From an uncultured Bacillales bacterium (GTDB lineage Bacteria; Bacillota_I; Bacilli_A; RF39; UBA660), in contig CAMOSQ010000001.1 in the NCBI GenBank assembly GCA_946624985.1, forward strand, positions 76,733 through 140,732: DNA of 64,000 nucleotides, in the 5' to 3' direction. The position numbers and the translations under genes were made by a program. Shown here piece by piece: positions 3,419 to 54,376 of this stretch (within the stretch, counting starts at the first letter, position 1; each line of letters starts with the position of its first letter). A model generated the notes under the pieces. The model saw only the letters and a program-made list of their open reading frames with translations, did not search any database and was not told where the DNA came from.

Positions 3419-3457
3419 TAAAAAGGCTAGTTTTTAAGTGAAAAAAGGAGTATTTTT

Positions 3458-9549: not shown

Positions 9550-9567
9550 TTGACAGTTATTTAATTT

Positions 9568-9590
9568 GAGCAATATTTGCTCTTTTTTTT
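9568..9590 (+). terminator. Rho-independent terminator
   Basis: GAGCA-ATATT-TGCTC followed by T8. Confidence 0.65.
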
Positions 9591-9636
9591 GTTGCCTAAA
9601 AAAATATTTTTCATAAAATACTTTGAGGAGGCTTTT

Positions 9637-24151: not shown

Positions 24152-24397
24152 ATGAAAGAGGCTGCAGGAGAAGCAAATATGACTGTAATAACAATTGTTT
24201 TAATTGGTGTTGTTGCAGCAGTAGGTTTATTATTAGTTCCAAGACTTATGGGCAATGTTAAGGCAAGAGCATGTTGTACTGATGGTGGTGGATATGTGAG
24301 TGGTTCTTATTGTTTGTGGGGTAAGAATAGTTATGGAAAACTTACTGGTGATACTTTTAAAACAAATGAATATTTTAGTGCTTGTATGGCTGACTAA
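24152..24397 (+). CDS. Pilin-like small protein A (N-terminal hydrophobic helix, Cys-rich head)
   Basis: MKEAAGEANMTVITIVLIGVVAAVGLLLVPRLM is followed by a 48-aa part with five Cys. RBS is GGGAGGTG. Confidence 0.55.
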   Translation: MKEAAGEANMTVITIVLIGVVAAVGLLLVPRLMGNVKARACCTDGGGYVSGSYCLWGKNSYGKLTGDTFKTNEYFSACMAD

Positions 24398-24462
24398 AAT
24401 TTTGATTGTTTATAATTTATTTTTAAACGATTTATTATTATATAAAGAAGGGTGGTGATATT

Positions 24463-24681
24463 GTGAAAGAGGCAGCAGGAGAAGCAAATATGACTGTAAT
24501 AACAATTGTTTTAATTGGTGTTGTTGCAGCAGTAGGTTTATTATTAGTACCAAGATTGATGTCTAATATTAAAAAGAAATCATGTTGTACAGATTCAGCT
24601 GGAATTTGGTCTGGAAATAAGTGTGTTTCAGCAGCTGGTATTTTTTTCGATGAAACTGCATATAATAGTTGTGCACAATAA
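24463..24681 (+). CDS. Pilin-like small protein B (paralog of A)
   Basis: GTG start after GGGTGGTG. The first 33 aa are identical to A and the DNA is near-identical across about 95 nt. The C-terminal part is divergent with four Cys (SCCTD...C...C). Confidence 0.55.
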   Translation: MKEAAGEANMTVITIVLIGVVAAVGLLLVPRLMSNIKKKSCCTDSAGIWSGNKCVSAAGIFFDETAYNSCAQ

Positions 24682-24817: not shown

Positions 24818-26407
24818 ATGATATTTAAGAAACCTTATGCATTTTTTATTAAGTTTTTTAAGTTTTTTCATTTAATTATATTTTTACTTTCTTCTATATT
24901 ATTATATAGGACTTCTTTAGTATATAATTTTATGATGGAATATTGTAAGTCTAACCCTAATGTTATAGGTAAGAACTTAACTTCGACTTTGTTTGTATGG
25001 TGGGTTTATTTATTAATATTTATAATACTTGCTGTTAATATATTGATAATTATTGTTTTAATTCGTAAGGTAAAACCTTATATGTATTATATTTTTAATA
25101 TAGGTTTATACATTTTTGTTGCGGTTGTTTTTATTGTGTCTCATCGTGTTATTGGAAATATGCAAACTATGTTAGTCGCTACTAAAACTACTTTAGCAAT
25201 TCGTGATTTTCTTAATTTAGCTCGTTTGTTTCAGACTGTAAGTGTTGTATTTTATTTAATACGTTCTACAGGTTTTGATATTAAAAAGTTTGATTTTGTT
25301 AGAGATTTGCATGGAATGGATATTTCTGAAGAAGATAGTGAAGAAATAGAAGTGTCTGTAGAATTTGAGGGTAATGTTTTTATTAGAAATATTAGAAAAG
25401 AATTAAGAAATATTAGATATTATTATAAAGAAAATAAGTTCATTATTAATATTTTTTCTATGTTATTTCTTTCTTTTATATTTTTATTTATTTATTTTAG
25501 TTTTAATAAGTATGATAAGGTTTATAATGAGAATAGTTTTTTTAGTGTTGGTGGATATAATATTGGAGTAAAATCTAGTAGTATTTTAAGTACTGATTTT
25601 ATGGGCAATAAGATTGTTTCTGATGATAGTGTGTTAGTTGTTATTAAGTTTTCTGTAAAAGGATTGGAACCATTATCTTCTTCAAAGTTTGTATTGGTTG
25701 TTAATGGTATGCAGTATTATCCTGTTAGCGGATATGATTCATATCTTACTGATTTAGGAATTGTTTATAATAATCAATTAATTAATAATGAGTTTAGTGA
25801 TTATTTGTTTGTTTATTCAATTCCTAAGGATAGTGCTGAATCTTCTATGATTTTTAGATGTATAGATAGTATTAATTTTAAGAGGGGAAATACTATAGTT
25901 AATTCTATTGATGTTAAACTTGATCCTATTAATTATGACAATGCAGATATTAAAACTTATGAATATGGTTTGAATAATGTTATTGATATTGACGATTACA
26001 AAGTTAATATTGTTGATTATGATATTAGTAAATCTTTTGTTGTTAATTATAATTCTTGTATTTTACCTAATGAGTGCTATGATTTTAAGGAAGTTTTATT
26101 ACCTAGCTTAATGAGAAATAGGGAAAAGATTTTATTAAAGTTAAATGGTAGTGTTAGTAATTCTATAGGTAATTTAAATATGTATAAGTTTATTAAAAAT
26201 TATGGAAGTATTGATTATGTATATATTGGAAATAATTATACAGAAATTTCTGATTTTAATGTTGTTGTTTCTTCTAAGTCTAGTCTTTCTAATGTTTATT
26301 ATATAGAAGTTGATAAGGAGATTATGGATGCATCTTCAATCAAATTTAATTTTAATTTTAGAGATCGAAAATATAGTTATATTTTAAGGGGTGATAGTAA
26401 TGAGTAA
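24818..26407 (+). CDS. Membrane protein of unknown function (N-terminal multi-TM block, acidic linker, TM helix, large extracytoplasmic domain)
   Basis: The long ORF is preceded by T12 plus TGGTATAAT. Hydrophobic segments occupy residues 1-160 and about 210-230. Confidence 0.55.
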   Translation: MIFKKPYAFFIKFFKFFHLIIFLLSSILLYRTSLVYNFMMEYCKSNPNVIGKNLTSTLFVWWVYLLIFIILAVNILIIIVLIRKVKPYMYYIFNIGLYIFVAVVFIVSHRVIGNMQTMLVATKTTLAIRDFLNLARLFQTVSVVFYLIRSTGFDIKKFDFVRDLHGMDISEEDSEEIEVSVEFEGNVFIRNIRKELRNIRYYYKENKFIINIFSMLFLSFIFLFIYFSFNKYDKVYNENSFFSVGGYNIGVKSSSILSTDFMGNKIVSDDSVLVVIKFSVKGLEPLSSSKFVLVVNGMQYYPVSGYDSYLTDLGIVYNNQLINNEFSDYLFVYSIPKDSAESSMIFRCIDSINFKRGNTIVNSIDVKLDPINYDNADIKTYEYGLNNVIDIDDYKVNIVDYDISKSFVVNYNSCILPNECYDFKEVLLPSLMRNREKILLKLNGSVSNSIGNLNMYKFIKNYGSIDYVYIGNNYTEISDFNVVVSSKSSLSNVYYIEVDKEIMDASSIKFNFNFRDRKYSYILRGDSNE

Positions 26408-27020
26408 ATTAAGAATTTTATTGTTTTTACTTATTGTTCCCTTATCTGTAAGTGCGGCTTGTGATTCTTCTAGTTTATCAAGATATAAGAGTTTAGCTGC
26501 GAATATAAATAATTATTATGAGTATAATGGAAGCAGTTTTGATGTTACATTTTATAATGTTTCTAATGAACTTAAAATCGTAAATAAAAGTAATGGACAG
26601 GAATTTTTTCCTAATTCTAATTTTGGAGATGTTGTAGTAAATAATTTATCTAGTGGAGATGTGGGTAATTTTGCTGTATATCCTTCTACTGGTGAATGTA
26701 GTGCTTATAGGGTTTTTACTTTTTATATTAATCTTCCATATTATAATAGTTATTCAAGTGATCCTATTTGTGTTAATAATAGTAGTACTTTATGTTCTAA
26801 ATGGTCAAATACTAGTATGTATAGCTATGAACAGTTTGTTAATGCTGTAAAAAAAGATAAGAAGGAAGAAATTGTAACTCCTCCTCCAGAGGTTGAATCA
26901 CGAAGATATGGATTTTTTGATTTTTTAGGTGATTATTATATTTATATTTTATTATTTATAATTATTAGTGGTTCTATAGGAATATATTTCTTGGATAAGA
27001 AAAGTAAATTTGATTTTTAA
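26400..27020 (+). CDS. Secreted Cys-containing protein with a C-terminal TM anchor
   Basis: Signal peptide MSKLRILLFLLIVPLSVSA and C-terminal helix YYIYILLFIIISGSIGIYFL. The ATG overlaps the upstream stop, consistent with translational coupling. Confidence 0.5.
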   Translation: MSKLRILLFLLIVPLSVSAACDSSSLSRYKSLAANINNYYEYNGSSFDVTFYNVSNELKIVNKSNGQEFFPNSNFGDVVVNNLSSGDVGNFAVYPSTGECSAYRVFTFYINLPYYNSYSSDPICVNNSSTLCSKWSNTSMYSYEQFVNAVKKDKKEEIVTPPPEVESRRYGFFDFLGDYYIYILLFIIISGSIGIYFLDKKSKFDF

Positions 27021-27048
27021 AAAAAATGAAGGGTTTCCTTCATTTTTG
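27020..27048. terminator. Bidirectional terminator between convergent genes
   Basis: AAAAAATGAAGG-GTTT-CCTTCATTTTT. Confidence 0.7.
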
Positions 27049-27942
27049 TATTTGAATTGATTTTAAATATTCTTTTGTATATCCGGTTGTTCTTGATATA
27101 ATATCAAGTGGGATATTTTCTTTTAATAATATACATGCTGTTTTTATTTTATTTTGTGTGATTCCCTGTTCAAGTCCTTGTTCAAGTCCTTGTTCATGGG
27201 CTTTTTTCTTAGCTGTTTTCAAGATTGCTCTTTGTAACTTTTCGTATGATTCTTGATCTGTCATAAAACTAAATATATTTTTTTCATTGTATTTTTTTAC
27301 CATATTTCCTATCTCCTTTACTATTTCATCATATTTTCCAAGTAGTTCTAGTTCTTCTTTATTACAATCAAATATTATTATATGGGCATGTTCTTTAATT
27401 AACTCCTTGTTACCAGTATACAATATTTTTTTATATTTTGCAACATCATATACTAAAAAATTAATATTATCTATAAATTTATTATTATAGTTTTCTCCTA
27501 GCAAACAATGATTATCATATTCGTAGTTTTCTTCAATGTTATTACAAATATTTATTTGTATACATCTTGGTTGCTCGTCATAATCTTGTCCATGTTTTAG
27601 TATGTTTGAATAAATATTTGATAGATATGCAAAATTTCTTTTTTTTACATTTATATCAAATATATTATTTACTTCTAAATCGATTATTTCGTTTTTTCTT
27701 TTAACAAGTAAATCTACAGTTTTTTTTCTAACGTGAACATTACTTGTTATTAATTCTTGCTTTAACAGTTCTATAATACTGTTTTCATTTATTTCTTTGT
27801 TATCAATTTTATTAATTATAGAATAATCATCAAATTTTTTTCTGAGAAATTTTTCCAATAACCAACTCATATATTTTTTATTTGAGAAAATTAATTTGAA
27901 CATAGAATCATTAGAAAGTTTTTTAAAATCATTTTTTGTCAT
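27040..27942 (-). CDS. PD-(D/E)XK nuclease family transposase-like protein (Rpn/YhgA-like), copy 1
   Basis: N-terminus KLSNDSMFKLIFSNKKYMSWLLEKFL, core TVDLLVKRKNEIIDLEVNN, and C-terminal EQGLEQGLEQGI repeats followed by a helix-turn-helix-like tail. TGA stop. Confidence 0.6.
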   Translation of the reverse strand: MTKNDFKKLSNDSMFKLIFSNKKYMSWLLEKFLRKKFDDYSIINKIDNKEINENSIIELLKQELITSNVHVRKKTVDLLVKRKNEIIDLEVNNIFDINVKKRNFAYLSNIYSNILKHGQDYDEQPRCIQINICNNIEENYEYDNHCLLGENYNNKFIDNINFLVYDVAKYKKILYTGNKELIKEHAHIIIFDCNKEELELLGKYDEIVKEIGNMVKKYNEKNIFSFMTDQESYEKLQRAILKTAKKKAHEQGLEQGLEQGITQNKIKTACILLKENIPLDIISRTTGYTKEYLKSIQIQK

Positions 27943-28123: not shown

Positions 28124-29317
28124 ATGAAAAAAGTTAAGAATTTAAGAGTTGCTGCGGCATTACAAGCAATATTGTTATCAGGGGCTACTTTGTCTGCTTT
28201 TGTTTCTTGTGCTGATGATGATATGGAAGTTGCTGATAATCCAGCTATTGTTTCTGAGATTGTAGATTTAGATAATACTTCTAAAGTAGAGAAAGTGACT
28301 ACTGTTCAGACTGATTATGTCGGTGAATTTAGTGATGAAGTTGAAGATGAATATGTTGATTCTGATGCAGTAATTGTTACTGATCTTAATGAGAATGAAA
28401 GTTCTGAGGAAAAAATTACTATGACTGTTAGTACAGCTTCTAATAGTGAGGATAAAGGTACTACTAAGAGTGAGAAAGGTACTAAAAAAACAAATAAAAG
28501 TACTTCTAAGTCTGGAGATGTGGCAGGTAAGAGTGGTGATGTAACAACTAAAGTTACTGATAAAAAACAAGGTGTAACAACTAAGACTACTGTTAAGGAA
28601 ACTAGTCCAGTTACTAAAAAGACTACTGTTAAGATAACTACAGTTACTAAACCAGTTACAACTAAGACTATTACTACTGAAGCTAAGACAGAGCCAAAGA
28701 CAGAACCTATTACTGAGCCTCCTGTTGTTACTGATGCTCCTAGATCTGATTATAGTATTAATGAAATTTGTTATGATGCAAATGCATTTAATTATTTTGC
28801 TGATAAATTATGTGTTGATTTAAAAACCACTGGTGATGGTAGTTATTATGATTTTGTCAATGGTTCTCCACTTTTTAAGGAATCTAAATATTTATTGGCT
28901 TTATTAAATGAGGGATATATTAATGAAGATGTTTTGATGACTGTTTTTGCTGATTTTTCTTCTTATGATATGGATAGATCGAATAGTTTCTTTGGTGATT
29001 ATTTGTTTCATCAAAGTACTATGTCGAATAAGGTTAAATTTGGTTTGTATTCTTGCGATGATTGCCAATATGGTCAATATATTGATCAAATCAATGATGC
29101 TTATTTGAATAATTACTTTGATCAATTTGCTACTGATCAACTTGTTGATGGTAATATTGAACAAAGATATCTTGATAGTACAGCTATAAGAGTTTATTTT
29201 GATTTATGCGATTATCATGATTTATATACTGAGGATACTGATTTCTTTTTTGAAACTTTCCCATATATGGATAAATTGGAATCGATTGTAAATGGAAGAA
29301 GCTATTCTCTTAATTAA
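28124..29317 (+). CDS. Lipoprotein with a Thr/Lys/Val-rich low-complexity linker
   Basis: Lipobox LSAFVSCADD. The linker reads TTKTTVKETSPVTKKTTVKITTVTKPVTTKTITTEAKTEPKTEPITEPP, followed by a C-terminal globular part with Cys. Confidence 0.6.
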   Translation: MKKVKNLRVAAALQAILLSGATLSAFVSCADDDMEVADNPAIVSEIVDLDNTSKVEKVTTVQTDYVGEFSDEVEDEYVDSDAVIVTDLNENESSEEKITMTVSTASNSEDKGTTKSEKGTKKTNKSTSKSGDVAGKSGDVTTKVTDKKQGVTTKTTVKETSPVTKKTTVKITTVTKPVTTKTITTEAKTEPKTEPITEPPVVTDAPRSDYSINEICYDANAFNYFADKLCVDLKTTGDGSYYDFVNGSPLFKESKYLLALLNEGYINEDVLMTVFADFSSYDMDRSNSFFGDYLFHQSTMSNKVKFGLYSCDDCQYGQYIDQINDAYLNNYFDQFATDQLVDGNIEQRYLDSTAIRVYFDLCDYHDLYTEDTDFFFETFPYMDKLESIVNGRSYSLN

Positions 29318-29321
29318 TGTT

Positions 29322-29349
29322 AAGACAACACAATTTGTGTTGTCTTTTT
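29322..29349 (+). terminator. Rho-independent terminator
   Basis: AAGACAACAC-AATTT-GTGTTGTCTT followed by TTT. Confidence 0.8.
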
Positions 29350-29425
29350 AATTATATAAAAATATTGTTTTTTTTATCTTTTTTTGTTATACTTTTATAT
29401 AGGATAAGGATATTTGGTGATTTAT

Positions 29426-31891
29426 ATGAAGAATATATATGTTAAAAGATTTTTAAATGTCTTATTATTTTTCTTTTTTTTGCTAGGATTTAGTATTGAT
29501 TATGTTTTTGCGGATCCTCAAATTATTATAGATGCTGGTGGCGGAGATTCTGCTTCCACTGCAGCTCCTCGTGCTGGAAATTGGGATACCAGTTTCCAAG
29601 GTTTTGGTGGATATAGAGTAACCTTAGTTGACAAGAATGGTAAAAGAGTATCGGGAACTAGGAGTGTTGATTTTTATAATCCTGGTAATGGTAATAATAT
29701 TTCAACTTATAGGTTAGTTTATGGTGATAAGTATTTATATAGGACTAGTGAAAGATCTAGTGTTCAAGATGCTAATTATGTATCTAAAGATGGTTTGGTT
29801 AGATATGGTTCTAGTTATATTCCTTTTGGAAAATGGCAAAGTACAGGATTATTCGCTGATGTTGAAGCGGATGAAAATTTTAGAGAACAGTATATAAAGA
29901 ATTATGAGAATAATAAAGTTTTTTGCCTTAATGGCGAAGAATGTAATGACAAGTTAGATTTTCTTTCTTTGTTTTTACATCTTTCTAATTATTTAAGTAG
30001 TAGTGATAATTTGTTTTATAATAATACTCAAAAAACAATTGAATTGTTGGATTATTCCATATTTATTGAACATTTATATAAAATAGGTGGTGTAAATGTT
30101 TATGGAACTGGTTTTGAAATGTATTACGACAGTGGTGATCCACTTACTGAAAAAATTAGAAATCAACAAGCACTTGAAAATTTTAGATTTGTATGTTCTT
30201 CTTATTCAAGAAGTGGTCCTTCTGAATTGTTTGAAAATTATCCTAGTGATTATCATGAGTGTTTAGAAAATGGAATGGCATATAATGGTAAAATTTATAT
30301 AGGTAATGCTGGAAACTGGGCAGATTTACCTGGTATTACTCTTTCTACAACTGCTCATGGTGATGTTTGGGATGTTTACAAGGGTAATGTTCAAAAATTT
30401 AAAGATGTTCAAGATAAAATTGCTGTTGGAGTTACTACTGTTATGATGAAAGATGTTGTTGAGCGTCCTCCTTTTGAATCAGAAATGAATTTGTGTAATA
30501 ACGGAATTGTCTCTTTTAAATCTAATTCTAATACTAAATCTAATGTAGAAGAAGGTGATGAGGTTTTCAAAAAAGAACTTTTTAAAACAAATAATAAAGT
30601 TGATGATTCTCAAGCATTGTATTGTTATGATATTGCCACATATAATTATTCTGATACTATTGAATCTTTGGGAGGGATAAAAGCTTTAAATACTAACATC
30701 GAACCTAAACCTATAACAGCTACAATTACTAGACGTTGTTATAATGTTAATGGTAGTGAAAAACTTGCTGATCAAATATCTAAAGATTATAATGAATCAA
30801 TATATATTCGAAATTTATATGGTAATGATTATGAATTTTCTTCTTCAAAATGTAGTGATATTAAAACTGTATCCCATAATGGTGTTTCAGTTGTATCATG
30901 CAAAATAAATTATAGTTTGTCTAATTCTATTACTCTATCTCGTTTTTCTATTAATAGAAATTTGCTTAATAAGGAAAATACGGCTTATATTGATTTTTCA
31001 AATTATAAGGAAAGATTTGGTGCTAGCAATAAATTAATTAACGAAATATTAAATAATGGTATTTCTCTTCCTTCAATTAATTTTTTTAGAGAAGATAAGT
31101 TTATAGAAATTGATGAATACAAGTATAGATTAACTAGCCCATCTTTATCAGGTGATTCTGGTAAATGCTCTTTTAATTATACTATTGAGGCTGATGAATC
31201 TATGCTGTCTTCTAATTCTAATTTTAAATTTAGAGTAATATCCCTAGATAATCCCTTTCCTGCAAGAGATGGAACTTTTAGAATGCCTGGTTTGAACTGG
31301 TTGTCATCAACTGATAATAATGTCTTTGAGTATATAACTAATAATAGAGGTATTAGGTATGTTACTAAATCAAATGATGTTAGTCCTGAGGAAATGTATA
31401 ATAAGGTTGAGCCTATGTATACGGTAACACTTACACCTTCTACTATGATTAAGATTAGAAATTATAATAAGAAGTATGCTTATGATTCTATGTATCAGTC
31501 TATGAGTGCGGATGTTACTTCTCATGGAGCTTATAAGCTTGAGTGTAATTATCACGATTTGGGAAATGGTGATATTGGAAATGGCAGAGAATGTTATAGT
31601 ACATTCTTAAGAAAATATATTAATGATAGTATGGGTGGAGTGTGTTATTTGTCTCCTAGTGAATTAAATAAGGATGTTACAGGTTATAAAAAAGATCTTT
31701 CACCTTTATTATATATTTTGAATAGTTCAAGTACTTCATATAGTATAGATTATGATTTGAATAAAAATAATAGAAATGATGCACTTGATTGGTATATTCT
31801 TCAACCAGAAAATCGAGGAAAAAATATTCAATATTATACTTGTGCAAATAAGACTTTCTTAAGTGGTGGTCCTATTGAGGGAGGTAGGTAG
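29426..31891 (+). CDS. Large secreted protein (822 aa) of unknown function, first gene of the Tad-like operon
   Basis: Signal peptide MKNIYVKRFLNVLLFFFFLLGFSIDYVFA. There are no further TM helices but many Cys. Its stop lies 2 nt before the first minor-pilin-like gene. Confidence 0.55.
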   Translation: MKNIYVKRFLNVLLFFFFLLGFSIDYVFADPQIIIDAGGGDSASTAAPRAGNWDTSFQGFGGYRVTLVDKNGKRVSGTRSVDFYNPGNGNNISTYRLVYGDKYLYRTSERSSVQDANYVSKDGLVRYGSSYIPFGKWQSTGLFADVEADENFREQYIKNYENNKVFCLNGEECNDKLDFLSLFLHLSNYLSSSDNLFYNNTQKTIELLDYSIFIEHLYKIGGVNVYGTGFEMYYDSGDPLTEKIRNQQALENFRFVCSSYSRSGPSELFENYPSDYHECLENGMAYNGKIYIGNAGNWADLPGITLSTTAHGDVWDVYKGNVQKFKDVQDKIAVGVTTVMMKDVVERPPFESEMNLCNNGIVSFKSNSNTKSNVEEGDEVFKKELFKTNNKVDDSQALYCYDIATYNYSDTIESLGGIKALNTNIEPKPITATITRRCYNVNGSEKLADQISKDYNESIYIRNLYGNDYEFSSSKCSDIKTVSHNGVSVVSCKINYSLSNSITLSRFSINRNLLNKENTAYIDFSNYKERFGASNKLINEILNNGISLPSINFFREDKFIEIDEYKYRLTSPSLSGDSGKCSFNYTIEADESMLSSNSNFKFRVISLDNPFPARDGTFRMPGLNWLSSTDNNVFEYITNNRGIRYVTKSNDVSPEEMYNKVEPMYTVTLTPSTMIKIRNYNKKYAYDSMYQSMSADVTSHGAYKLECNYHDLGNGDIGNGRECYSTFLRKYINDSMGGVCYLSPSELNKDVTGYKKDLSPLLYILNSSSTSYSIDYDLNKNNRNDALDWYILQPENRGKNIQYYTCANKTFLSGGPIEGGR

Positions 31892-31893
31892 AT

Positions 31894-32310
31894 ATGCATG
31901 AGTCGTTTTGGGGAACTTTTATAATTGGAGCAGGTGTAGTTATTATTGGTCTTATATTTTTTATGCAAAATGTTACTAATAATGAACAGGAATTGTATTC
32001 GATTTTAAAAGATACGACCGAGGCTGCAATGCTTGATGCTTTTGATTATGATTCTTATTATACTGATACACATGGTAATGGTAAGGTTATTAGAATAGAT
32101 AGAGAGGCTTTTGTTGAAAGTTTTGTTAGAAGATTTTCTCAAAATGCTTCTCTTACAAATACATATGTTATTGAATTTTATGATATTAATGAATATCCAC
32201 CTAAGGTGAGTATTAGAGTTAAATCAAAAACTGGTGGTGTTGTGATGAATCAAGAATTTGATTTTTCTAATTCTAGTCAAATTGATGCAATTCTTGAATC
32301 TGTTGAATAG
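31894..32310 (+). CDS. Minor pilin / TadE-like protein 1
   Basis: A short polar N-terminus is followed by a single hydrophobic helix (MHESFWGTFIIGAGVVIIGLIFF). Supported by position in the Tad-like operon. Confidence 0.4.
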   Translation: MHESFWGTFIIGAGVVIIGLIFFMQNVTNNEQELYSILKDTTEAAMLDAFDYDSYYTDTHGNGKVIRIDREAFVESFVRRFSQNASLTNTYVIEFYDINEYPPKVSIRVKSKTGGVVMNQEFDFSNSSQIDAILESVE

Positions 32311-32322
32311 CGAGGTGAAATA

Positions 32323-33132
32323 GTGAAAGAAAGTATTAGTTATTCATTTTTACTTAATATTATTATTTTATTTATCTTTGTTTGTGCTGCAATTGTAACT
32401 GGTATTTTTAGTTATTATCGGGCTTTTAAGGCTAATAATATTATTACTAGTGAAATTGAAAAGTATGAAGGTTATAATTGCGAATCAAAGAAAGCTATTG
32501 AAAGAAAATTGGGTGGAGTATCGTATAATGTTCCATTTAATGTAAAGTGTAAAAAAAGTGATGAGAATTGTATTACTGATGATGAAGAAAATGGTAATTA
32601 TGCAGTAGTTGCTTATAACCTTGATTATAAAAGTGGTACATATGCTTTTGATGATAACATGAATTCTAGTGTTTCTTCAGATGGATATACTAAGAGTTAT
32701 CAATATGGTGTTTATACTTATATGTATGTAGATCTACCTGTTGTTTCGAGTATTATTAGAATTCCTGTTTTTTCAAAAACAAAGGAATTGCATGAATTTA
32801 GAGATCTTGTCAGTGTGAAAAGTGTTTCTAATGCAGATTTTGTTATAGATGCTGGTATACTTCCATATTCTATTTCTTCTATGCTTGATTATGAAACTTA
32901 TGAAAAGGTTAAAGGTACTTTTTCTTTTCAACTTCAACAAAATCTTGCTGATAAAGTTGCTGGTAATCCATATAAATATGGAGCTAATCCTGATGAATAT
33001 GGAAATGGTAGGAAAGTATCTGATATTTTGGATCTAAGAGAAGCTTATAAATATTATGATGCATCTGGTCAAAATATTTTAACTGAAGGAAGACATGCAT
33101 GTGGAACAACCGTTGATTGGTCTGTTTTTTAG
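32323..33132 (+). CDS. Minor pilin / TadE-like protein 2
   Basis: VKESISYSFLLNIIILFIFVCAAIVTGIF, the same N-terminal architecture. Confidence 0.4.
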   Translation: MKESISYSFLLNIIILFIFVCAAIVTGIFSYYRAFKANNIITSEIEKYEGYNCESKKAIERKLGGVSYNVPFNVKCKKSDENCITDDEENGNYAVVAYNLDYKSGTYAFDDNMNSSVSSDGYTKSYQYGVYTYMYVDLPVVSSIIRIPVFSKTKELHEFRDLVSVKSVSNADFVIDAGILPYSISSMLDYETYEKVKGTFSFQLQQNLADKVAGNPYKYGANPDEYGNGRKVSDILDLREAYKYYDASGQNILTEGRHACGTTVDWSVF

Positions 33133-33141
33133 GAGGGGTAT

Positions 33142-33750
33142 ATGAAAGGTGCTATTGGTAATGCGTTTATTTTGAATATGGTTATTACTTTTATTATAAT
33201 TTTTTATATGCTTTTAATAGGTGCTGTTGCGTATAGTAAAGCTTATAAGGTCAATTCTTATTTAGTTAATTCGTTGGTTTCTTTTGATGAGAGATATGGT
33301 AGATATGACAATGGGGCTTACATATTAGATTCTGATGATGTATATTCTATATATGATAGTACTGTCTTTGATGTTGAAAACGATAAAAAAACTGGTGTTA
33401 AAAACACATATGTTGATAAGGTTAAGACTTGGGATCAGGCAGTTAATGATTATTTAGCTAGATCAGGTTATATTATAAATGGAACTGGTGCTGGTACCTG
33501 TGCAAAGGTTATTGATGATAAGTATCAGTTAATTAGAGATAATAAGAATGGATATGATTATTGCTTGTATATAAATGTTTTATATGATTCTAAAGCTGCT
33601 AGTATTGCTGGAAAAGCGGATGATCCTTATATAGATCAAAAGTATATGTATAAGGTTGTTTCATATATGAAGTTTGATTTTCCTATTGTTGGTAGTTTTA
33701 TGAAACTTCCAATTAAGAGTGAAACAAAAGTTATTACTAGATTTAAATAA
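33142..33750 (+). CDS. Minor pilin / TadE-like protein 3
   Basis: MKGAIGNAFILNMVITFIIIFYMLLIGAV, the same N-terminal architecture. Confidence 0.4.
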   Translation: MKGAIGNAFILNMVITFIIIFYMLLIGAVAYSKAYKVNSYLVNSLVSFDERYGRYDNGAYILDSDDVYSIYDSTVFDVENDKKTGVKNTYVDKVKTWDQAVNDYLARSGYIINGTGAGTCAKVIDDKYQLIRDNKNGYDYCLYINVLYDSKAASIAGKADDPYIDQKYMYKVVSYMKFDFPIVGSFMKLPIKSETKVITRFK

Positions 33751-33755
33751 TTGTC

Positions 33756-33784
33756 TTGCAAATTATTTATTTATAGTTTATAAT
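33756..33784 (+). promoter_or_regulatory. Internal sigma-70-type promoter upstream of the cpaB-like gene
   Basis: TTGCAA, a 17-nt spacer, then TATAAT. Confidence 0.55.
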
Positions 33785-33829
33785 GAGTATGATACGGTAG
33801 TGTATTTATAGAGTAGAAAGGGTGATTTT

Positions 33830-34633
33830 ATGAATTCAATTACTAGATTTTTTAAGAACAAAAATACTGTTACTGTTCTTGGTATAGTTGCGATTGTTGC
33901 TATGCTTTGGGGTGTTTATACCTATCAGATTAATAAACAGGTAAAGCCTAAAAGTGTACCTGTTGCTGCTGTAACTATTCAACCGAAGACTCAGATTACT
34001 GCAGATATGATTACTTATGTTGATGTTCCATCTGCATATATTTCTGATAATGCAATCACTGATAAGTCAAAAATTTTATCAATGTATTCAAATTTTAATA
34101 CTGTTATTCCTGCGGGAAGTATGTTTTATACTGATGCATTGACTACTGAAAAAGCTTTACCTAATTATTTGTTAAAACAATTAAAAGAAGGTGAATTTTT
34201 ACTTGCATATGATCTTTCTTCTGCAGAGGTTTCTTCTACTTGGGGAATAATGCCTGGAGATAAAATTGATTTATTTATGAGAGTTAATTCTGATGAAGGT
34301 TCTGTAATGCTTGGTAAATTTTTAGAGAATGTTGAAGTTTTGGATATTGTTGATGAAAATGGTAATAGTACTTATGATGTAAATGATGGATCTAGAGCTG
34401 CAAAATATTTGATATTTGCTGCACAAGAGGATATTTTCTTAATGTTAAAAAGAGCAAGTTATCTTGATGTTGAATTGATGCCTGTACAACATGGTGCATG
34501 GATTAATGATGATGATTTATCAATTACAATGACTACACAAGAATTAATTAATTATATTAGATCGCGTGTTGTGTCATTATCTACGGATCCAGTTGCTGGT
34601 CAAAATAGAAATACAATTCAACAAGTTCAATAG
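33830..34633 (+). CDS. cpaB: Flp pilus assembly protein CpaB/RcpC-like (SAF domain)
   Basis: N-terminal TM helix (VTVLGIVAIVAMLWGVY), then VPVAAVTIQPKTQITADMITYVDVP, typical of the CpaB SAF domain. Located immediately upstream of the ATPase. Confidence 0.6.
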   Translation: MNSITRFFKNKNTVTVLGIVAIVAMLWGVYTYQINKQVKPKSVPVAAVTIQPKTQITADMITYVDVPSAYISDNAITDKSKILSMYSNFNTVIPAGSMFYTDALTTEKALPNYLLKQLKEGEFLLAYDLSSAEVSSTWGIMPGDKIDLFMRVNSDEGSVMLGKFLENVEVLDIVDENGNSTYDVNDGSRAAKYLIFAAQEDIFLMLKRASYLDVELMPVQHGAWINDDDLSITMTTQELINYIRSRVVSLSTDPVAGQNRNTIQQVQ

Positions 34634-34641
34634 GTGATAAT

Positions 34642-35748
34642 ATGCATGAAAATATGTTTTCCCAAATAGATTTTGGTCCACTTTTAAAGTATTTACAAGA
34701 GGATGATATAACTGATATATCTTATAGTAATGGTGGTCAGATTTGGCTAAAAACATTGTCAAGGGGTATATTTCGTATTGAGGATCCTGAGATAAATAAT
34801 GATTTTATGGAAAAGTTAGCATTTCAGTGTTCAAATGTTATGGGTAAGTCTTTTAACTCTGCTCATCCATTATTGGACGCTGAAAGTGCTGAATTACGTT
34901 TTAATTTCGTTCACGATTCAGTAGCACGTAATGGTATTGCTGCTGTTTTGCGTAAAACTCCTGCAAAGATTAGATTGGAAAAAGAGAAGTTATTAAATGA
35001 AAAGTATGTTACATTAGAAGTCCATGATTTTTTACTTAAGTGTGTTGAAGCTCATTGTAATATAATTGTTTGTGGTGAAACTGGTAGTGGTAAGACTGAG
35101 TTTGTTAAGTATTTAGGAGCTCATATTAAGGAAAATGAAAAAATAATTACTATTGAGGATACTTTGGAACTTCACCTTGATAGAATTTTTCCTCATCGTG
35201 ATATTGTTGCTATGAAGACTAATAATATTGTTTCATATTCAGATGTTTTAGTTGCTTGTATGAGACAGAATCCTAAGTGGATATTGTTATCTGAGGTTCG
35301 TAGTGCTGAAGCTGTTATGGCTGTACGTAATTCAATTTCGTCTGGACACTATATTTTGTCTACTATACATGCTGATAAGGCTGAGTCTATTCCAAACCGT
35401 ATGTATAGTTTGCTTGAAACTAATCAGGCAATTGATCAATTTTTGAAGTCTATTTACAGATATGTACAGATTGGTGTTTACATTCGTGGTTATCAAAGTA
35501 AAGAAACAAAGAAATTTGTTCGTGAGATTGCTGGTGTTACTGAATTTTATGTTGATAAGGATAATAATGCGATTTTCAATAATATTTATTTAAAAGGTAT
35601 TGAAGGAAAAACTGTTAAGAATAATCCTTCTCAATATTTGCTTGATTATATGGCTGCTCAGGGGGTTATTTTACCACCTGATTGTATTGTTCCTGAAAGT
35701 GCAACAATTAAGGAACAGCAAAATGATGAGATTATTTTTGATGAATAA
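34642..35748 (+). CDS. tadA: CpaF/TadA-type (VirB11-superfamily) secretion ATPase
   Basis: Walker A GETGSGKTE, Asp box TIEDTLEL, Walker B RQNPKWILLSEVRSAEA, His box SGHYILSTIHA. Confidence 0.85.
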   Translation: MHENMFSQIDFGPLLKYLQEDDITDISYSNGGQIWLKTLSRGIFRIEDPEINNDFMEKLAFQCSNVMGKSFNSAHPLLDAESAELRFNFVHDSVARNGIAAVLRKTPAKIRLEKEKLLNEKYVTLEVHDFLLKCVEAHCNIIVCGETGSGKTEFVKYLGAHIKENEKIITIEDTLELHLDRIFPHRDIVAMKTNNIVSYSDVLVACMRQNPKWILLSEVRSAEAVMAVRNSISSGHYILSTIHADKAESIPNRMYSLLETNQAIDQFLKSIYRYVQIGVYIRGYQSKETKKFVREIAGVTEFYVDKDNNAIFNNIYLKGIEGKTVKNNPSQYLLDYMAAQGVILPPDCIVPESATIKEQQNDEIIFDE

Positions 35749-35757
35749 GGAGGTAAT

Positions 35758-36660
35758 ATGGAAACTTTAATGTTTGTATTTATAGCTTTTATAATTGTTT
35801 ATATTGTTCTTTATAGAAGACATACTGGCGAAAAGTTTTCTGCTTATGTTGTTGATCAGATTGGAACTTTATATGAGAAATATGCTCCTTATTCTTTTAA
35901 GGAAGTAAGAGGTAAGGTTAAAGAACTTGGTCAGGAATATACTACAAAGCAATATGCCTTACAGGTTGCTGTTTTAGGTTTTGGATTTGCTATTTTAGGA
36001 TATCTTTATTTTTACAATGTTATTGTTGCACTTGTTTATGGATTGATTGCTATTGGTTTTGTTCCATATCTTGCTTATTTACGTTGTAAGAGAATTTATA
36101 GTGAGTTTATATTTGAACAAATTCAAGTTTACACTACTAACGTTATAATGGAATTTGCTACTACTCAGGCTTTTGTTAAGTCTCTTGAAGGTGTTTATGC
36201 ATCTGGAGTTTTAGAGGATCCTGTAAAGAGTGATGTAAAAGTTATGATTGATATGTCATATGCTAATGGTACTATTGATGCTTCTATTGATTATATGAAT
36301 AGTAAGTATGATTATTTTATTGTTAGAAATATGCATCAAATATTTTTACAAATTACTAATGAAGGTTCAAGAGATGCTGGAGAGTCTTTGGAAAATATGA
36401 GCCAAGATATAGATATGCTTGTTGAGTCTGTTTATCGTGACAGAATTGATAGAGCTGCTTTTTATAAGAAATTTTTGCAGTTTGGTATTGTTTTATATCT
36501 TATGGTTATGCTTGTTCAATTTATATTGGGTGTTCCTACTTATATTGAAAACTTGAAGGAAATATATATGCAATTTTTACTTCATGGTGTTGTTGCCATT
36601 AATACTTTCTTTATAATTAGTGGTACTAAATTTTATAATGAGAATGTAGGTGCTGAATAA
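35758..36660 (+). CDS. TadB-like inner-membrane platform protein (T2SS-F-type)
   Basis: One N-terminal TM helix, a central TM pair and C-terminal TM helices. Sits directly after the ATPase. The assignment rests on topology and context. Confidence 0.5.
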   Translation: METLMFVFIAFIIVYIVLYRRHTGEKFSAYVVDQIGTLYEKYAPYSFKEVRGKVKELGQEYTTKQYALQVAVLGFGFAILGYLYFYNVIVALVYGLIAIGFVPYLAYLRCKRIYSEFIFEQIQVYTTNVIMEFATTQAFVKSLEGVYASGVLEDPVKSDVKVMIDMSYANGTIDASIDYMNSKYDYFIVRNMHQIFLQITNEGSRDAGESLENMSQDIDMLVESVYRDRIDRAAFYKKFLQFGIVLYLMVMLVQFILGVPTYIENLKEIYMQFLLHGVVAINTFFIISGTKFYNENVGAE

Positions 36661-37463
36661 TGGATATAACTTTAATTGTTTTTGCAGCAATTGCTGTAAT
36701 CATATTTTTTGTTACTATTGTTAATCACAAACTTGATCATAAAAAATTTATTAAGGAAATTACACCTTATTTTGGATTTTTAAAAGAGAAAGATTATGAT
36801 TATCTTCTTAAACTAAAGTATGGTGATGAGATTGATAGTACAAAAATGTTTAATAAGCGTATTAAGAATTCTGGATTAGCATTTTTAGTTGCATTTGTTG
36901 TTATTTTTTTAGCTAATTTTGGATATATATATTTAATTCTTTCTTTTATTATATTTTTTGTAGTATTTAAGTTAGATTATATGCAACTTAATAGTTTTAG
37001 GAAAGCTCATATGCATCAAATTGATTTATTGCTTCCTTATTATTTAAAAAGTTTGGAAATACTTGCACAGCATTATACTATTCCTGTTGCACTTAGAAAA
37101 TCTATAGAATCTGCTCCTTCTGTTTTTAAGAAAGGTCTTGAACATTTATGTGATCAAATTGAAGCGGGTGATTCTAGTGTTGAACCATATATGAATTTTG
37201 CTCGTGAATATCCTGTTCGTGATTCGATGAGAATGATGCGTTTATTATATCGTTTAAGTATTGGTTCTCAGGAAAGTAAACAAGAGCAATTATTGATGTT
37301 TTCTAGAACTATTTCTAATTTACAAGCAAAAGCTCGTGAACAAAAGTATAAAGAGCGTCTTGAAAATATGGAAAAGAGAACTCTTATAATGCTTGTATGT
37401 ACCGGTGGTGGTGTTATGGGTATTATGATGATTGCTATGATGGGTATGATGACTGCATATTAG
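36660..37463 (+). CDS. TadC-like inner-membrane platform protein
   Basis: Same topology class. The start overlaps the upstream stop (TAATG). The C-terminal TM helix is LIMLVCTGGGVMGIMMIAMMGMM. Confidence 0.5.
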   Translation: MDITLIVFAAIAVIIFFVTIVNHKLDHKKFIKEITPYFGFLKEKDYDYLLKLKYGDEIDSTKMFNKRIKNSGLAFLVAFVVIFLANFGYIYLILSFIIFFVVFKLDYMQLNSFRKAHMHQIDLLLPYYLKSLEILAQHYTIPVALRKSIESAPSVFKKGLEHLCDQIEAGDSSVEPYMNFAREYPVRDSMRMMRLLYRLSIGSQESKQEQLLMFSRTISNLQAKAREQKYKERLENMEKRTLIMLVCTGGGVMGIMMIAMMGMMTAY

Positions 37464-37493
37464 GATGACACTTTTGTGTTATCTTTTTTTTTT
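37464..37493 (+). terminator. Rho-independent terminator
   Basis: GATGACAC-TTTT-GTGTTATC followed by T10. Confidence 0.8.
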
Positions 37494-37545
37494 ATTTACT
37501 ATTTTTTTTAAATGTGTTAAAATTATATTAATGGGAGGCTAGTTT

Positions 37546-38595
37546 ATGAATGTTATTATATCAAATAAAAACAAAGAAATGCTTGATAGGCTTAATATTG
37601 AGGTTATTAAAAGATTAGATGGTGAATACTCTGTTGATGAGATTGTTAATACTTTTCAAAATTTCTTTTTTAATAAAATGATTTTGGATATTACTTCTAT
37701 TAGAGATTATACAAATTTGTCTGTTATTCAAAAGTTTGCTTCTTCTTTTGATCTTAATAAGGTAATATTTCTTTTAGATGCTTCTGTTTCTTCTCCTGAT
37801 TATGTTTCTAAGATTATTTCAATGGGAATTTATAATTTTACTTCTAATTTAGAAGGAATAATGTATTTATTTTATAATCCTAATACTTATAGTGATGTTT
37901 CACAGTATCATCAAATTGATAATATGATTGTTGAGGAAAGTAATGAACCTGCACCTAATGTTTTTGAATTTAGTGGTAATGAGAGTTCTAGTTCTAATAG
38001 TGATGTTGATTCAAGTAATGTTGTTCAAACTAATAGGGAAATAGGTGTTGATAATTCACTTAATGTACAGGATGTTTCTAAGGGTAAAGGTACTAGAATT
38101 ATTGGTATTAAGAGTGTTACACCGGGTGCTGGTTCTACAACTCTTACTTATTTAATGAAAAAACAATTGGAGAAGAAGTATAAAGTTTTGGCTATTGAAG
38201 TTGAGAAACGTGATTTTATCTATTTTAATGATAAGGATTTGGTTTCTAGCGCTAATGGCGTTATAGGTGATTTGCTTACTACAAATAAAGACAAAGATGT
38301 GCTTCTTGTTGATTTAAATGGTAGTCAGGCTGCTGAAAATTTTTGTGATGAGGTTCTTTATTTGATTGAACCATCTATTATCAAGATAAATAGATTATTG
38401 TCTATTAAACCTAAGATATTGAATGAGCTAAAAGGAAAAAAAGTTGTTTTATGTCCTAGTTTATTATCTAATAAGGATGTTAAAGATTTTGAATATGAAT
38501 CTGGTTTAAGTATCTTTTATAATATGGTTCCTGTTGATGATCATTCAAATAGTAATGTAATTAAGGATTTTCTTACAAAGCTTCAGTTCAAATAA
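37546..38595 (+). CDS. TadZ/CpaE-like protein (receiver-like N-domain plus degenerate ParA/MinD-type ATPase domain)
   Basis: IIGIKSVTPGAGSTTLTYLMKKQL is a degenerate deviant Walker A. VLLVDLNGS is Walker-B-like. A low-complexity Ser/Asn linker joins the domains. Confidence 0.45.
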   Translation: MNVIISNKNKEMLDRLNIEVIKRLDGEYSVDEIVNTFQNFFFNKMILDITSIRDYTNLSVIQKFASSFDLNKVIFLLDASVSSPDYVSKIISMGIYNFTSNLEGIMYLFYNPNTYSDVSQYHQIDNMIVEESNEPAPNVFEFSGNESSSSNSDVDSSNVVQTNREIGVDNSLNVQDVSKGKGTRIIGIKSVTPGAGSTTLTYLMKKQLEKKYKVLAIEVEKRDFIYFNDKDLVSSANGVIGDLLTTNKDKDVLLVDLNGSQAAENFCDEVLYLIEPSIIKINRLLSIKPKILNELKGKKVVLCPSLLSNKDVKDFEYESGLSIFYNMVPVDDHSNSNVIKDFLTKLQFK

Positions 38596-38598
38596 TTA

Positions 38599-38627
38599 TT
38601 GACAAATTATCATTTTTATTGTATTAT
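38599..38627 (+). promoter_or_regulatory. Canonical sigma-70 promoter
   Basis: TTGACA, a 17-nt spacer, then TG-TATTAT. Confidence 0.65.
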
Positions 38628-38651: not shown

Positions 38652-39023
38652 ATGGGATTAATTCAAATTTTAGATGGATATACAGGTTGTCCAGGTGTTG
38701 CCGAAATACCATATAAACTTATTAATACAGTTTCTACTATTATTAAGGTTATTAAATTTGGTGTGCCAATTCTTTTAATTATTTTTGGTATGTTAGACTT
38801 AGGTAAGGCTGTTGTTGCTAGTAAAGAAGATGAAATTAAAAAAGGGCAACAAATGTTTATTAAAAGAGTTATTTCTGCAGTTTTAGTATTCTTCGTTGTA
38901 GTAGTTGTTCAATTGGTTGTTAATTTAGCATCAACTGATGATACTACTGAGACAGGTAATATCTGGAATTGTGTTAATACATTTGTTAAAGGATGTCCTA
39001 ATAATAAATGTCCTAAAAATTAG
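38652..39023 (+). CDS. 2-TM pilin-like (VirB2/TrbC/Maff2-type topology) protein, paralog 1
   Basis: VPILLIIFGMLDLGKAVVASKEDEIKKGQQMFIKRVISAVLVFFVVVVVQLVVNL, then a Cys-rich tail IWNCVNTFVKGCPNNKCPKN. Confidence 0.5.
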   Translation: MGLIQILDGYTGCPGVAEIPYKLINTVSTIIKVIKFGVPILLIIFGMLDLGKAVVASKEDEIKKGQQMFIKRVISAVLVFFVVVVVQLVVNLASTDDTTETGNIWNCVNTFVKGCPNNKCPKN

Positions 39024-39044
39024 ACTTTTTAAGTCTTTTTTTTT
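39022..39044 (+). terminator. Terminator hairpin
   Basis: AGACTT-TTT-AAGTCT followed by T8. Confidence 0.6.
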
Positions 39045-39130
39045 GTGTAAACATGTTCTTTTATTATATTATTTTCGTTGATTATTTTATTGTTTTATGG
39101 TATTCTAATATTAGAAATGGATGTGAATTT

Positions 39131-39751
39131 ATGAATGCTTCTCAAATTTGTAATATGTTAGATGCAGATTTAATACGTTTTATTCATAATATTATAGTTA
39201 TTATAAAAATTGCAGTACCTGTTATTTTAGTTATTTTAGGTATGTTAGATTTTGCGAAGGGTGTTACTTCTGGTAAAGAGGATGAAATAAAGAAGGGACA
39301 AGGAATATTTATTAAAAGGTTAATTGCTGGTGCTTGTGTTTTCTTTGTTGTTACAATTGTACAGTTAGTAATGTCGTTTGTTTCTAGCGATGATAATAGT
39401 TTTTGGAATTGCGCTAATCAAATATTAAATGGTACTGGTGGTACTACATATGTACCTAGTGGTGTTACTGGAAATAATAGTAATTATACCAATAAACAAA
39501 ATAATCAGGTAAATACTCAAAATAATGCACAGAATAATAGTCAAAATAATGAAAATAAGCAGCCATTTGTTGATGAAAATGCGGGCGAATCTCATACAAG
39601 TAATAGTGGAAATACTCATGGGGGTGGAGGTTCTAGCTGGGAAGGTAATTCTCCTTCTGGAGGTGCTTCGGAATCACATACTAGTGATAGTGGTTATAGC
39701 CATGGCGGCAATGGAACTAATTATGATACTCAGACTAATGGACATTGGTAA
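39131..39751 (+). CDS. 2-TM pilin-like protein, paralog 2, with an Asn/Gln/Gly/Ser/His-rich tail
   Basis: VPVILVILGMLDFAKGVTSGKEDEIKKGQGIFIKRLIAGACVFFVVTIVQLVMSF, then FWNC. The tail contains the repeat ESHTS[ND]SG..HGG. Confidence 0.5.
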   Translation: MNASQICNMLDADLIRFIHNIIVIIKIAVPVILVILGMLDFAKGVTSGKEDEIKKGQGIFIKRLIAGACVFFVVTIVQLVMSFVSSDDNSFWNCANQILNGTGGTTYVPSGVTGNNSNYTNKQNNQVNTQNNAQNNSQNNENKQPFVDENAGESHTSNSGNTHGGGGSSWEGNSPSGGASESHTSDSGYSHGGNGTNYDTQTNGHW

Positions 39752-45966: not shown

Positions 45967-45983
45967 AAAGGGTGTGATATATA

Positions 45984-48605: not shown

Positions 48606-48622
48606 TAGTTGGTGGTGATTAA

Positions 48623-54289: not shown

Positions 54290-54376
54290 GTTATAGGTAA
54301 TGTTTTCTCTTGAATATAAATTGTAGTAAGTGTATAATATATTTAGTTGTTTACATTAATTTTTATAGGAGGGTAT

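Follow-up and report, generated by a model that had tools for sequence, protein, structure and literature searches.

What does a bacterium build from a set of Tad-like pilus genes that runs directly into a type IV secretion cluster? The question is raised by a 64,000-nucleotide stretch of DNA (hereafter the window; contig CAMOSQ010000001.1, positions 76,733 to 140,732, forward strand) from an uncultured Bacillales bacterium of the GTDB order RF39, family UBA660. The source assembly (GCA_946624985.1) measures 842 kb at ~27% G+C and is 77% complete; the window is part of a 156-kb contig. Genomes of the family range from 0.6 to 1.6 Mb. Relatives are deposited under names such as "uncultured Bacilli bacterium", "uncultured Tenericutes bacterium", "Acholeplasma sp. 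CAG:878" and "Candidatus Fimihabitans intestinipullorum", and isolate names point to a gut, faecal or rumen origin for many close relatives. A first-pass annotation made from the sequence alone had described positions 29426-38595 as a non-canonical Tad-like operon running from a giant exported protein to a TadZ-like protein. Its open reading frames (ORFs) and their order were borne out, with the exported protein measuring 821 aa from its ATG, and the cluster indeed holds no secretin and no peptidase. The operon is not self-contained, as it continues into type IV secretion genes. The secretion cluster lies directly downstream of tadZ, and 29426-38595 is therefore the upstream half of a supercluster extending from ~24.1 to ~56.6 kb of the window (roughly 32 kb), with the pilus module first and the type IV secretion genes after it. 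Judged from sequences and structure models, the region is best described as a genuine filament-assembly module that is Tad-like but very divergent; it is not a Tad operon standing alone, nor is it a simple accessory of VirB11. We assign a probability of about 0.6 to the reading that it is a pilus module serving the adjacent secretion system.

A Tad-like assembly core within a secretion supercluster

The secretion ATPase of the module (34642-35748, +) belongs to the T2SSE superfamily (Pfam T2SSE, 2e-28). Its Walker A, Asp box, Walker B and His box are intact, and these catalytic motifs are all invariant among orthologs. The protein falls below the cut-off of every NCBIfam subfamily model; the best score is that of VirB11 (TIGR02788, 124.8 bits against a cut-off of 249.95), which is half of the cut-off and covers the ATPase core only, and TrbB gives 96.5 bits against 304.55. 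Scores against the PDB tie among FlaI (68.7 bits), CpaF (67.6 bits) and VirB11 (66 bits). A maximum likelihood tree of 248 columns united the window family with plasmid ATPases, from a member of the pLS20 family, Listeria pLM6179 and pBS72, in a group split from all others at 84.7/90; the ATPase of the Bacillus cytotoxicus plasmid pCh23_53 branches next. With pCh23_53 included, the group is separate from CpaF (Rhizobium, Caulobacter, Ralstonia), actinobacterial TadA, FlaI and VirB11/TrbB. The VirB11/TrbB clade comprises four annotated VirB11 proteins, one VirB11-like protein with a solved structure and two TrbB proteins, and the window ATPase lies outside it. Within the tree sample, the window-type clade occurs only paired with secretion genes. 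Searching 79 genomes of a phylum sample with a canonical CpaF query returned no match at E 1e-40 or better, an uninformative outcome. We place the ATPase in the same clade as the "VirB11-like" ATPases of pLS20-type Bacillus and Listeria plasmids, a predicted lineage that is neither VirB11/TrbB nor CpaF. The first-pass annotation had framed the identity of this protein as a choice between VirB11 and CpaF/TadA; the VirB11 side did not hold, and the CpaF side did not either.

Two polytopic membrane proteins are encoded next, a TadB-like platform protein (35758-36660, +) with no Pfam or PDB sequence match and a TadC-like one (36660-37463, +) for which the evidence, from hhalign, is weaker. Canonical TadB/TadC profiles were built from Rhizobium, Ralstonia, Rhodococcus and Clavibacter plasmid sequences. 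Against these, hhalign gave 94.6% for the TadB-like protein (E 6.5e-8, 177 columns) and 78.7% for the TadC-like protein (E 1.7e-5), and all 19 reversed or block-shuffled controls stayed at or below 1.1%. The AlphaFold2 model of the TadB-like protein (predicted local distance difference test score, pLDDT, 86.8) matched the cytoplasmic domain of EpsF in Foldseek (TM-score 0.62, probability 0.85, E-value 2.8), all other matches having TM-scores of ~0.3 or less. Aligned with each other by hhalign, the TadB-like and TadC-like proteins gave no signal at that alignment depth, and PDB profile searches with the TadB-like, TadC-like, TadZ-like and CpaB-like proteins came back empty. A profile HMM search of 1.8e9 representatives with the TadB-like family retrieved only 354 proteins, and none of 17 full-length distant TadB-like relatives matches T2SSF. 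Because the profile-profile links came with clean controls, we accept both membrane proteins as putative, very divergent members of the type II secretion F (T2SS-F) family, the second with less certainty. The tadB-like and tadC-like labels of the first-pass annotation are supported. It had also raised the case of flanking membrane proteins that lack the T2SS-F fold; this is not what the profile and fold links indicate, yet the module lies physically within the secretion cluster.

The CpaB/RcpC-like protein (33830-34633, +) has an N-terminal transmembrane (TM) helix, a SAF domain and an RcpC domain. The window copy itself scores below cut-off for both TIGR03177 (1e-7) and RcpC (PF16976; 0.008, 16.5 bits against 28.8). 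Among its orthologs, 20 of 21 match Pfam RcpC (best 7e-8) and seven match SAF, which bears out the predicted cpaB. The TadZ-like protein (37546-38595, +) consists of a receiver/flavodoxin-like N-domain, a disordered linker and a ParA/MinD-like C-domain whose P-loop lacks the lysine; its AlphaFold2 model (pLDDT 84) shows two confident domains with the disordered linker between them. Foldseek matched the model to ParA/ParF/MinD/HypB-type NTPases at 1e-5 to 1e-4 and, over both domains, to the Eubacterium rectale TadZ (3fkq, 2e-4), itself a two-domain protein. The family numbers more than 5000 members, all of them "hypothetical" and without Pfam domains or a sequence-family match. The degenerate Walker A motif noticed earlier, GAGSTT, is conserved as xAG[AS]T[TS], with the lysine absent, in 19 of 19 aligned orthologs. 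Because the P-loop is without lysine in every ortholog, the TadZ-like protein is probably not an active ATPase. The "Tad-like" label is hence apt for the assembly core (the CpaB-, TadB- and TadC-like proteins and, by fold, the putative TadZ-like one), and the ATPase stands outside the sampled TadA/CpaF clades.

Synteny of the pilus half was compared in 20 relatives from different genera and that of the secretion half in 14. The usual order in relatives is [529-aa, 209-aa, large protein], DUF5411, cpaB, ATPase, tadB, tadC, pilin, minor pilin(s), tadZ, VirB2-like, VirB6, and VirB2-like genes follow tadZ in 18 of the 20. In the window the secretion half starts with two VirB2-like proteins, each a 2-TM hairpin (38652-39751, +; T4SS_pilin PF18895 at 1.7e-4, below cut-off). 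A stretch at 43993-50599 (+) then encodes a VirB6/TrbL-like protein (Pfam TrbL_4, 5e-11), a small ORF, a split VirB4 (AAA_10/TraG P-loop) and a wall hydrolase with SpoIID and NlpC/P60 domains. The supercluster ends with a type IV coupling protein of the VirD4/TraG family (54347-56557, +; Pfam T4SS-DNA_transf, 4.5e-52). VirB4 (73-81% identical) is present in 12 of 14 relatives, and so is the coupling protein. With VirB4, a coupling protein, a VirB6-like protein and a wall hydrolase in one cluster, the predicted products make up a Gram-positive conjugation-type secretion set. Pfam found no relaxase in the window; PF03432 scored above cut-off in 3 of 25 family genomes sampled (6 of the 41 genomes searched in all) and PF02486 (Rep_trans) in 0 of 41, these two profiles being the whole of the relaxase search, which did not cover MOBV, MOBL, MOBC, MOBF or MOBH.

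Two smaller features of the secretion half may be recorded here. VirB4 is split into frames at 46276-46821 (181 aa) and 46821-48605 (594 aa). The split recurs in at least 7 of the 14 relatives, which makes it an inherited arrangement rather than a sequencing error. A small rhodanese-like gene (56617-56907) lies directly after the coupling protein gene, here and in 7 of the 14 relatives, and may be part of the cluster.

Of the 151 genomes of the order, 127 (84%) carry the ATPase gene as a single copy; they represent 73 of 87 genera, and identity is 63-80%. Beyond the family its occurrence is patchy: one genome of another family has a copy 61% identical, and a few genomes have relatives of it at 30-42%. 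Identity to the window copy clusters by genus (pooled standard deviation 1.3 versus 3.1, reached in 0 of 10000 permutations) and correlates with the identity of alanyl-tRNA synthetase (AlaRS; rho 0.65, p 3e-6). By these sequence comparisons, the ATPase looks vertically inherited. AlaRS itself, encoded at 59326-61068, is a short 580-aa form in this genome. In 42 genomes of the family, a frame of ~580-600 aa (51-77% identical) was seen 23 times, one more genome has its gene divided between two contigs, and the other 18 carry a form of ~900-1100 aa that is 42-46% identical over the first ~430 residues; with two length forms in the family, AlaRS is an imperfect vertical marker.

Pilins, minor pilins, prepilin peptidase and the large exported protein

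The first-pass annotation had reported that the operon lacks a pilin. This holds inside 29426-38595 only, as two pilin-like genes lie 5 kb upstream of the operon at 24152-24681. The first (24152-24397, +) has a ribosome-binding site and encodes 81 aa beginning MKEAAG|EANMTVITIVLIG... with a Cys-rich head; homologs occur in 12 of 20 relatives. The second (24463-24681, +) encodes 72 aa, of which the N-terminal 33 are the same as in the first, and has homologs in 16 of 20. Both start MKEAAGEANMTVITIVLIG. The pilin leader M-K-[EA]-A-x-G is conserved, and the start reads MKEAxG|E[AL]N[ML]T. More generally, pilins and minor pilins begin alike, with a leader of six residues, M-[KR]-[EDA]-x-x-G, and a hydrophobic helix after it, a prepilin-like layout. 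A Pfam search of 36 proteins gave no Flp or TadE match.

In relatives the pilin homolog usually comes directly after tadC. Two terminator-like hairpins (29322-29346, +, 11 pairs, before the operon; 37462-37485, +, 10 pairs followed by nine T) bracket 29414-37463, the second being the terminator that had been placed between the tadC-like and tadZ-like genes. It occupies the site at which relatives usually have pilin and minor-pilin genes. Because relatives usually carry the pilin block between tadC and tadZ, we read this genome as having moved its pilins upstream and its minor pilins before cpaB, leaving the terminator at the former pilin site. The missing pilin is thus a product of local rearrangement and not a notable trait of the system.

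Three genes ahead of cpaB had been called TadE-like, an assignment that did not survive. The first (31894-32310, +) encodes a DUF5411 protein with an N-terminal anchor (Pfam PF17424, 4e-44, 150.2 bits against a cut-off of 30, full length), present in 17 of 20 relatives. The other two encode minor-pilin-like proteins: one at 32323-33132 (+; 269 aa, MKESIS|YSFLLN...), which shares the leader M-[KR]-[ED]-x-x-G and has an ortholog in 16 of 20 relatives, mostly placed behind the pilin gene, and one at 33142-33750 (+; 202 aa, MKGAIG|NAFILN...). All three proteins are small and N-terminally anchored. The minor-pilin-like proteins match no Pfam or NCBIfam model, TadE and Flp included, and hhalign of DUF5411 and the minor pilins against TadE/TadG profiles gave nothing (6.6% and 1.3%). 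A weak to modest link connects the minor-pilin-like proteins, the 269-aa one in particular, with the DUF4320/pLS20 gene 40 profile (hhalign, 71% against 0.4% for the control).

A genome-wide check for peptidase A24 found none in the window or in the genome's own 77%-complete assembly; of 100 high-quality genomes of the family, 99 have exactly one, which lies outside the cluster. The incomplete assembly explains why A24 was not found here, and the absence that had been singled out as a notable trait is an assembly gap. The A24 frames of relatives (249-294 aa) are of PilD/ComC size, and the locus has no dedicated TadV. Elsewhere in the same genome, contig C9 carries a 387-aa protein with the classical type IV prepilin start MKNNKG|FALTEILIL (17-1180, -) and, divergent from it, a 548-aa PilB/GspE-type ATPase (1289-2935, +; T2SSE, 420 bits). 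By sequence, the genome, small as it is, holds a second filament system of classical type, and A24 would have at least one other client.

The large Sec-exported protein at the head of the operon (29426-31891, +) is hypervariable, finding only itself among 5.8e9 proteins and matching no Pfam or NCBIfam model; it has a conserved C-proximal module at ~residues 602-740. A large ORF of 596-1290 aa stands directly upstream of DUF5411 in 15 of 20 relatives, and all of these proteins have Sec signal peptides. These positional orthologs share only a motif of ~130 C-proximal residues. No similarity was detected to the 852-aa "conjugal transfer protein" of pCh23_53. The protein does not look like a pilin-like subunit, and the pattern fits what would be expected of an exposed, fast-evolving binding protein; nothing in the present evidence links it to the fibre tip, one of the places that the first-pass annotation had suggested for it.

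Plasmid counterparts, function and competing explanations

The best plasmid matches of the ATPase are on Bacillus and Listeria conjugative plasmids; the match listing alone places further matches on Bacillus anthracis virulence plasmids. In pCh23_53 the corresponding block comprises a large "conjugal transfer protein", DUF5411, an RcpC-like protein (2.5e-5), a ParA-like AAA_31 protein, the ATPase, two membrane proteins, small proteins and DUF4320. Genes 34-49 of pLS20 encode a large adhesin, a small anchored protein, a "putative VirB11", two membrane proteins, a small anchored protein, 47-aa single-TM proteins, a 2-TM hairpin, VirD4 and VirB6. The membrane-protein profiles from the window match those of pCh23_53 at 7e-19 (TadB-like) and 2e-15 (TadC-like), and pLS20 genes 38 and 39 at 9e-5 and 2e-7. 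The window DUF5411 gene takes the same position as DUF5411 of pCh23_53 and, by position and size, as pLS20 gene 36. The same block adjoins VirD4/VirB6/VirB4 in the pLS20-family plasmid, Listeria pLM6179 and pCh23_53. In pLS20 it lies inside the conjugation operon, and the annotation of that plasmid names the ATPase VirB11, leaves genes 36-41 as unknown, with the explicit statement that the plasmid encodes no components of a pilus (Val-Calvo et al. 2021, PMC8557374). Gram-positive type IV secretion systems are said to be universally without VirB11 homologs and are reported without pili (review, PMC12857230), and Gram-positive classes are said to have no major pilin genes and to rely on adhesins (PMC12102498). 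Our literature search found no paper linking the block to Tad-type machinery; the plasmid counterparts are known so far only as "VirB11 plus unknowns". By gene content and homology, the region would belong with other filament modules that sit inside type IV secretion clusters of monoderms and form a group of their own.

The likeness to the plasmids extends along the pLS20-family operon, from the large exported protein and N-anchored protein through the ATPase, two polytopic proteins, a second N-anchored protein, tiny single-TM proteins and a 2-TM hairpin to VirD4/VirB6/VirB4, and pCh23_53 additionally shares the RcpC-like protein and a ParA-like ATPase. In the pLS20 stretch that was read, by contrast, no CpaB-like or TadZ-like gene is present. 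Unlike the blocks of pLS20-type plasmids, the window block is chromosomal, near-universal in its family and mostly without a relaxase, and its TadZ-like gene stands last and has lost the Walker lysine. As a side observation, tiny single-TM plasmid proteins (pLS20-family stretch 3375-3890; Listeria pLM6179 stretch 9378-9620) start with ...(E/Q)(A)NADR..., ahead of the hydrophobic helix. The E-A-N just after the putative cleavage site of the window pilins looks similar, which makes this a possible shared N-terminal signature without the Gly at -1.

With the Tad/Flp systems (Aggregatibacter tad, Caulobacter cpa, actinobacterial tad) the window shares a CpaB/RcpC-like protein, one ATPase, two single-domain T2SS-F proteins, a candidate TadZ/CpaE-like protein of two domains, short pilins, minor pilins and the absence of a retraction ATPase. 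It differs in an ATPase outside the sampled CpaF/TadA clades, pilins without the G/XXXXEY motif or a Flp-model match, minor pilins that match no TadE/TadF/TadG model, no TadV in the locus, a degenerate TadZ-like P-loop, a different gene order and fusion to a secretion system. The thin pilus of R64-type IncI plasmids (PilL-V) is likewise a type IV filament encoded beside a conjugative secretion system. It is of type IVb, though, works in a diderm with a secretin and a PilQ-type ATPase, and is related to the window in sequence only at superfamily level. Relaxase-less systems of Patescibacteria (PMC12102498) share reduced genomes, a monoderm-type VirB4 system, VirB2-like pilin arrays, a chromosomal location and wide distribution in the lineage mostly without a relaxase. 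The window lineage differs in belonging to Bacilli/'Tenericutes'-type gut bacteria; the Patescibacteria paper never mentions Tad, and VirB11 only for one diderm-type (MPF-T) system. The TANB77 pilus cluster (PMC11680825) is also divergent and Tad-like, fixed in an uncultured small-genome gut lineage and recognised mainly by fold. Its TadA is 640 aa long and has a TM helix, TadC and TadB are fused into a 693-aa protein, TadZ and CpaE are separate, seven pilin-like genes trail the others, and no adjoining secretion system is reported (PMC11680825); we rejected the window cluster as a TANB77 pilus on these differences of architecture.

Under the reading that the region is a pilus module serving the adjacent secretion system, a hexameric secretion ATPase would sit under a platform made up of the two membrane proteins, both divergent and of GspF/TadB/TadC type. 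A single helix would anchor the CpaB/RcpC-like protein, which would form the envelope-spanning part, and the TadZ-like protein would probably be a non-hydrolysing scaffold or positioning factor. The machine would extract the short pilins (57-90 aa, leader M-K-E-A-x-G) from the membrane and polymerise them, probably after trimming by the genome's single A24 prepilin peptidase, with the two minor-pilin-like proteins and perhaps DUF5411 priming the filament and the large hypervariable Sec-exported protein acting as a surface or fibre-associated binding factor. The filament would serve the adjoining system of VirB2-like proteins, VirB6, VirB4, hydrolase and coupling protein, probably by making or tightening contact with a target cell. 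This contact role is suggested by analogy with the thin type IV pilus of IncI plasmids, which aids mating in liquid (PMC12857230). A machine that is chromosomal, vertically inherited and in most genomes lacks a relaxase probably serves some purpose besides self-transfer, for example contact-dependent exchange with other cells. A wider proposal, which we hold tentatively and at less than even odds, is that such modules form an unrecognised class of filament machine integral to some monoderm secretion systems, with its own ATPase clade, an M-K-E-x-x-G pilin family, divergent TadB/TadC proteins and a TadZ that is a pseudo-ATPase. What is called "VirB11" in pLS20-type plasmids would then be a pilus motor, those Gram-positive conjugation systems would produce pili, and one family would have domesticated the machine as a relaxase-free, near-essential exchange apparatus in parallel to Patescibacteria.

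Several observations weigh against the pilus reading. The pilins show neither the G/XXXXEY motif of Flp nor the Glu at +5 that marks classical type IV pilins, so that A24 cleavage can only be presumed, and the second prepilin/PilB-type system needs A24 as well, so that the presence of this peptidase is not specific evidence. The TadB-like and TadC-like proteins reach no curated family threshold (Pfam or NCBIfam; window, distant and plasmid relatives), the TadC-like protein scores weakly against a TadC-only profile, and the EpsF match of the TadB-like model is not significant by its E-value. The ATPase tree has few taxa and long branches, the relaxase counts cover two families, and the genes flanking the supercluster differ between genera, which leaves some room for mobility.

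The alternative that fares best, though we consider it unlikely, has no long fibre at all: the module would build a short pseudopilus or piston, as in type II secretion, that helps the channel cross the wall or pushes VirB2-like subunits outward. The tight fusion of the module to secretion genes, very short pilins lacking the Flp motif, the large wall hydrolase in the same cluster and the reports of Gram-positive secretion systems without pili (PMC12857230) would all suit such a piston. Tad pilins are, however, normally equally short, and the large exported protein is highly variable and, in this genome, the pilin heads are Cys-rich, such variability being more typical of exposed structures.

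Rather less probable is a juxtaposition of two functionally independent modules, the pilus being an ordinary one for gut adhesion or colonisation, as Tad pili of gut Gram-positives (Bifidobacterium) and the TANB77 cluster serve host interaction (PMC11680825). The terminator and a strong promoter-like site (11/12, 38599-38627), located between the TadZ-like gene and the next gene, separate the two halves, and two relatives (G057 and G066) have the pilus core with no secretion genes within the next 20 kb. The same pairing nevertheless recurs in the phylogenetically distant Bacillus and Listeria plasmids, within a conjugation operon (PMC8557374), and the ATPase clade was found, within the tree sample, in that pairing only. 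An integrative conjugative element that swept through the lineage, in place of a chromosomal core trait, is also improbable. A coupling protein, VirB4 and hydrolase are present, relatives reside on conjugative plasmids, flanking genes vary between genera and transposase-like genes lie inside the cluster here; yet the locus is single-copy in 84% of genomes with genus-coherent divergence, no integrase is seen at its borders in the window, no GC shift crosses the window, and common relaxases are absent from most genomes. Finally, that the ATPase is a true VirB11 docking under VirB4, with membrane and small proteins specific to secretion and unrelated to type IV filaments, is very improbable: VirB11 gives its best NCBIfam score, the pLS20 literature uses that name (PMC8557374) and no member has a Pfam T2SSF match, whereas that score is half of the cut-off over the core only, the tree places the protein outside VirB11/TrbB, the TadB/GspF profile and fold links have clean controls, and RcpC and TadZ-like partners are foreign to a VirB system.

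If the pilus reading is true, some Gram-positive conjugative plasmids would have a mate-finding fibre, which would fit the efficient transfer of pLS20 in liquid (PMC11730352). Textbook accounts give these plasmids neither a pilus nor such a motor. An uncultured, tiny-genome gut family would keep a relaxase-less machine, pointing to a contact-dependent lifestyle that could guide culturing. Profiles are now supplied for four families that no curated database recognises, namely the TadB-like, TadC-like and TadZ-like proteins and the pilins.

Insertions and accessory genes

Between the pilin genes and the operon, the window carries a PDDEXK_2 transposase-like gene (27040-27942, -; Pfam 8e-9), an insertion in the cluster, and a second such gene lies at 51349-52302 (+), also inside the supercluster. 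Neither occurs in the cluster of any relative examined, and the local move of the pilin and minor-pilin genes may be connected with them. Between the first transposase-like gene and the operon, 28124-29317 encodes a 397-aa protein with a lipoprotein-like signal (...LSAFVSC) and a long Thr/Lys/Val-rich repetitive stretch, which has no homolog in the clusters of the 20 relatives.

The first of two overlapping accessory genes (24818-27020, +) encodes a multi-TM protein of 529 aa that has an exported domain, and the second encodes a 209-aa protein; neither product has a Pfam match. The idea that the 529-aa membrane protein is a hidden prepilin peptidase was rejected, as no acidic GxGD-type motif was visible by eye and the family has a normal A24. 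The 529-aa and 209-aa genes occur in 11 and 7 of 20 relatives, respectively, mostly in the order 529-aa gene, 209-aa gene, large protein gene, DUF5411, and their products are probably further parts of the machine.

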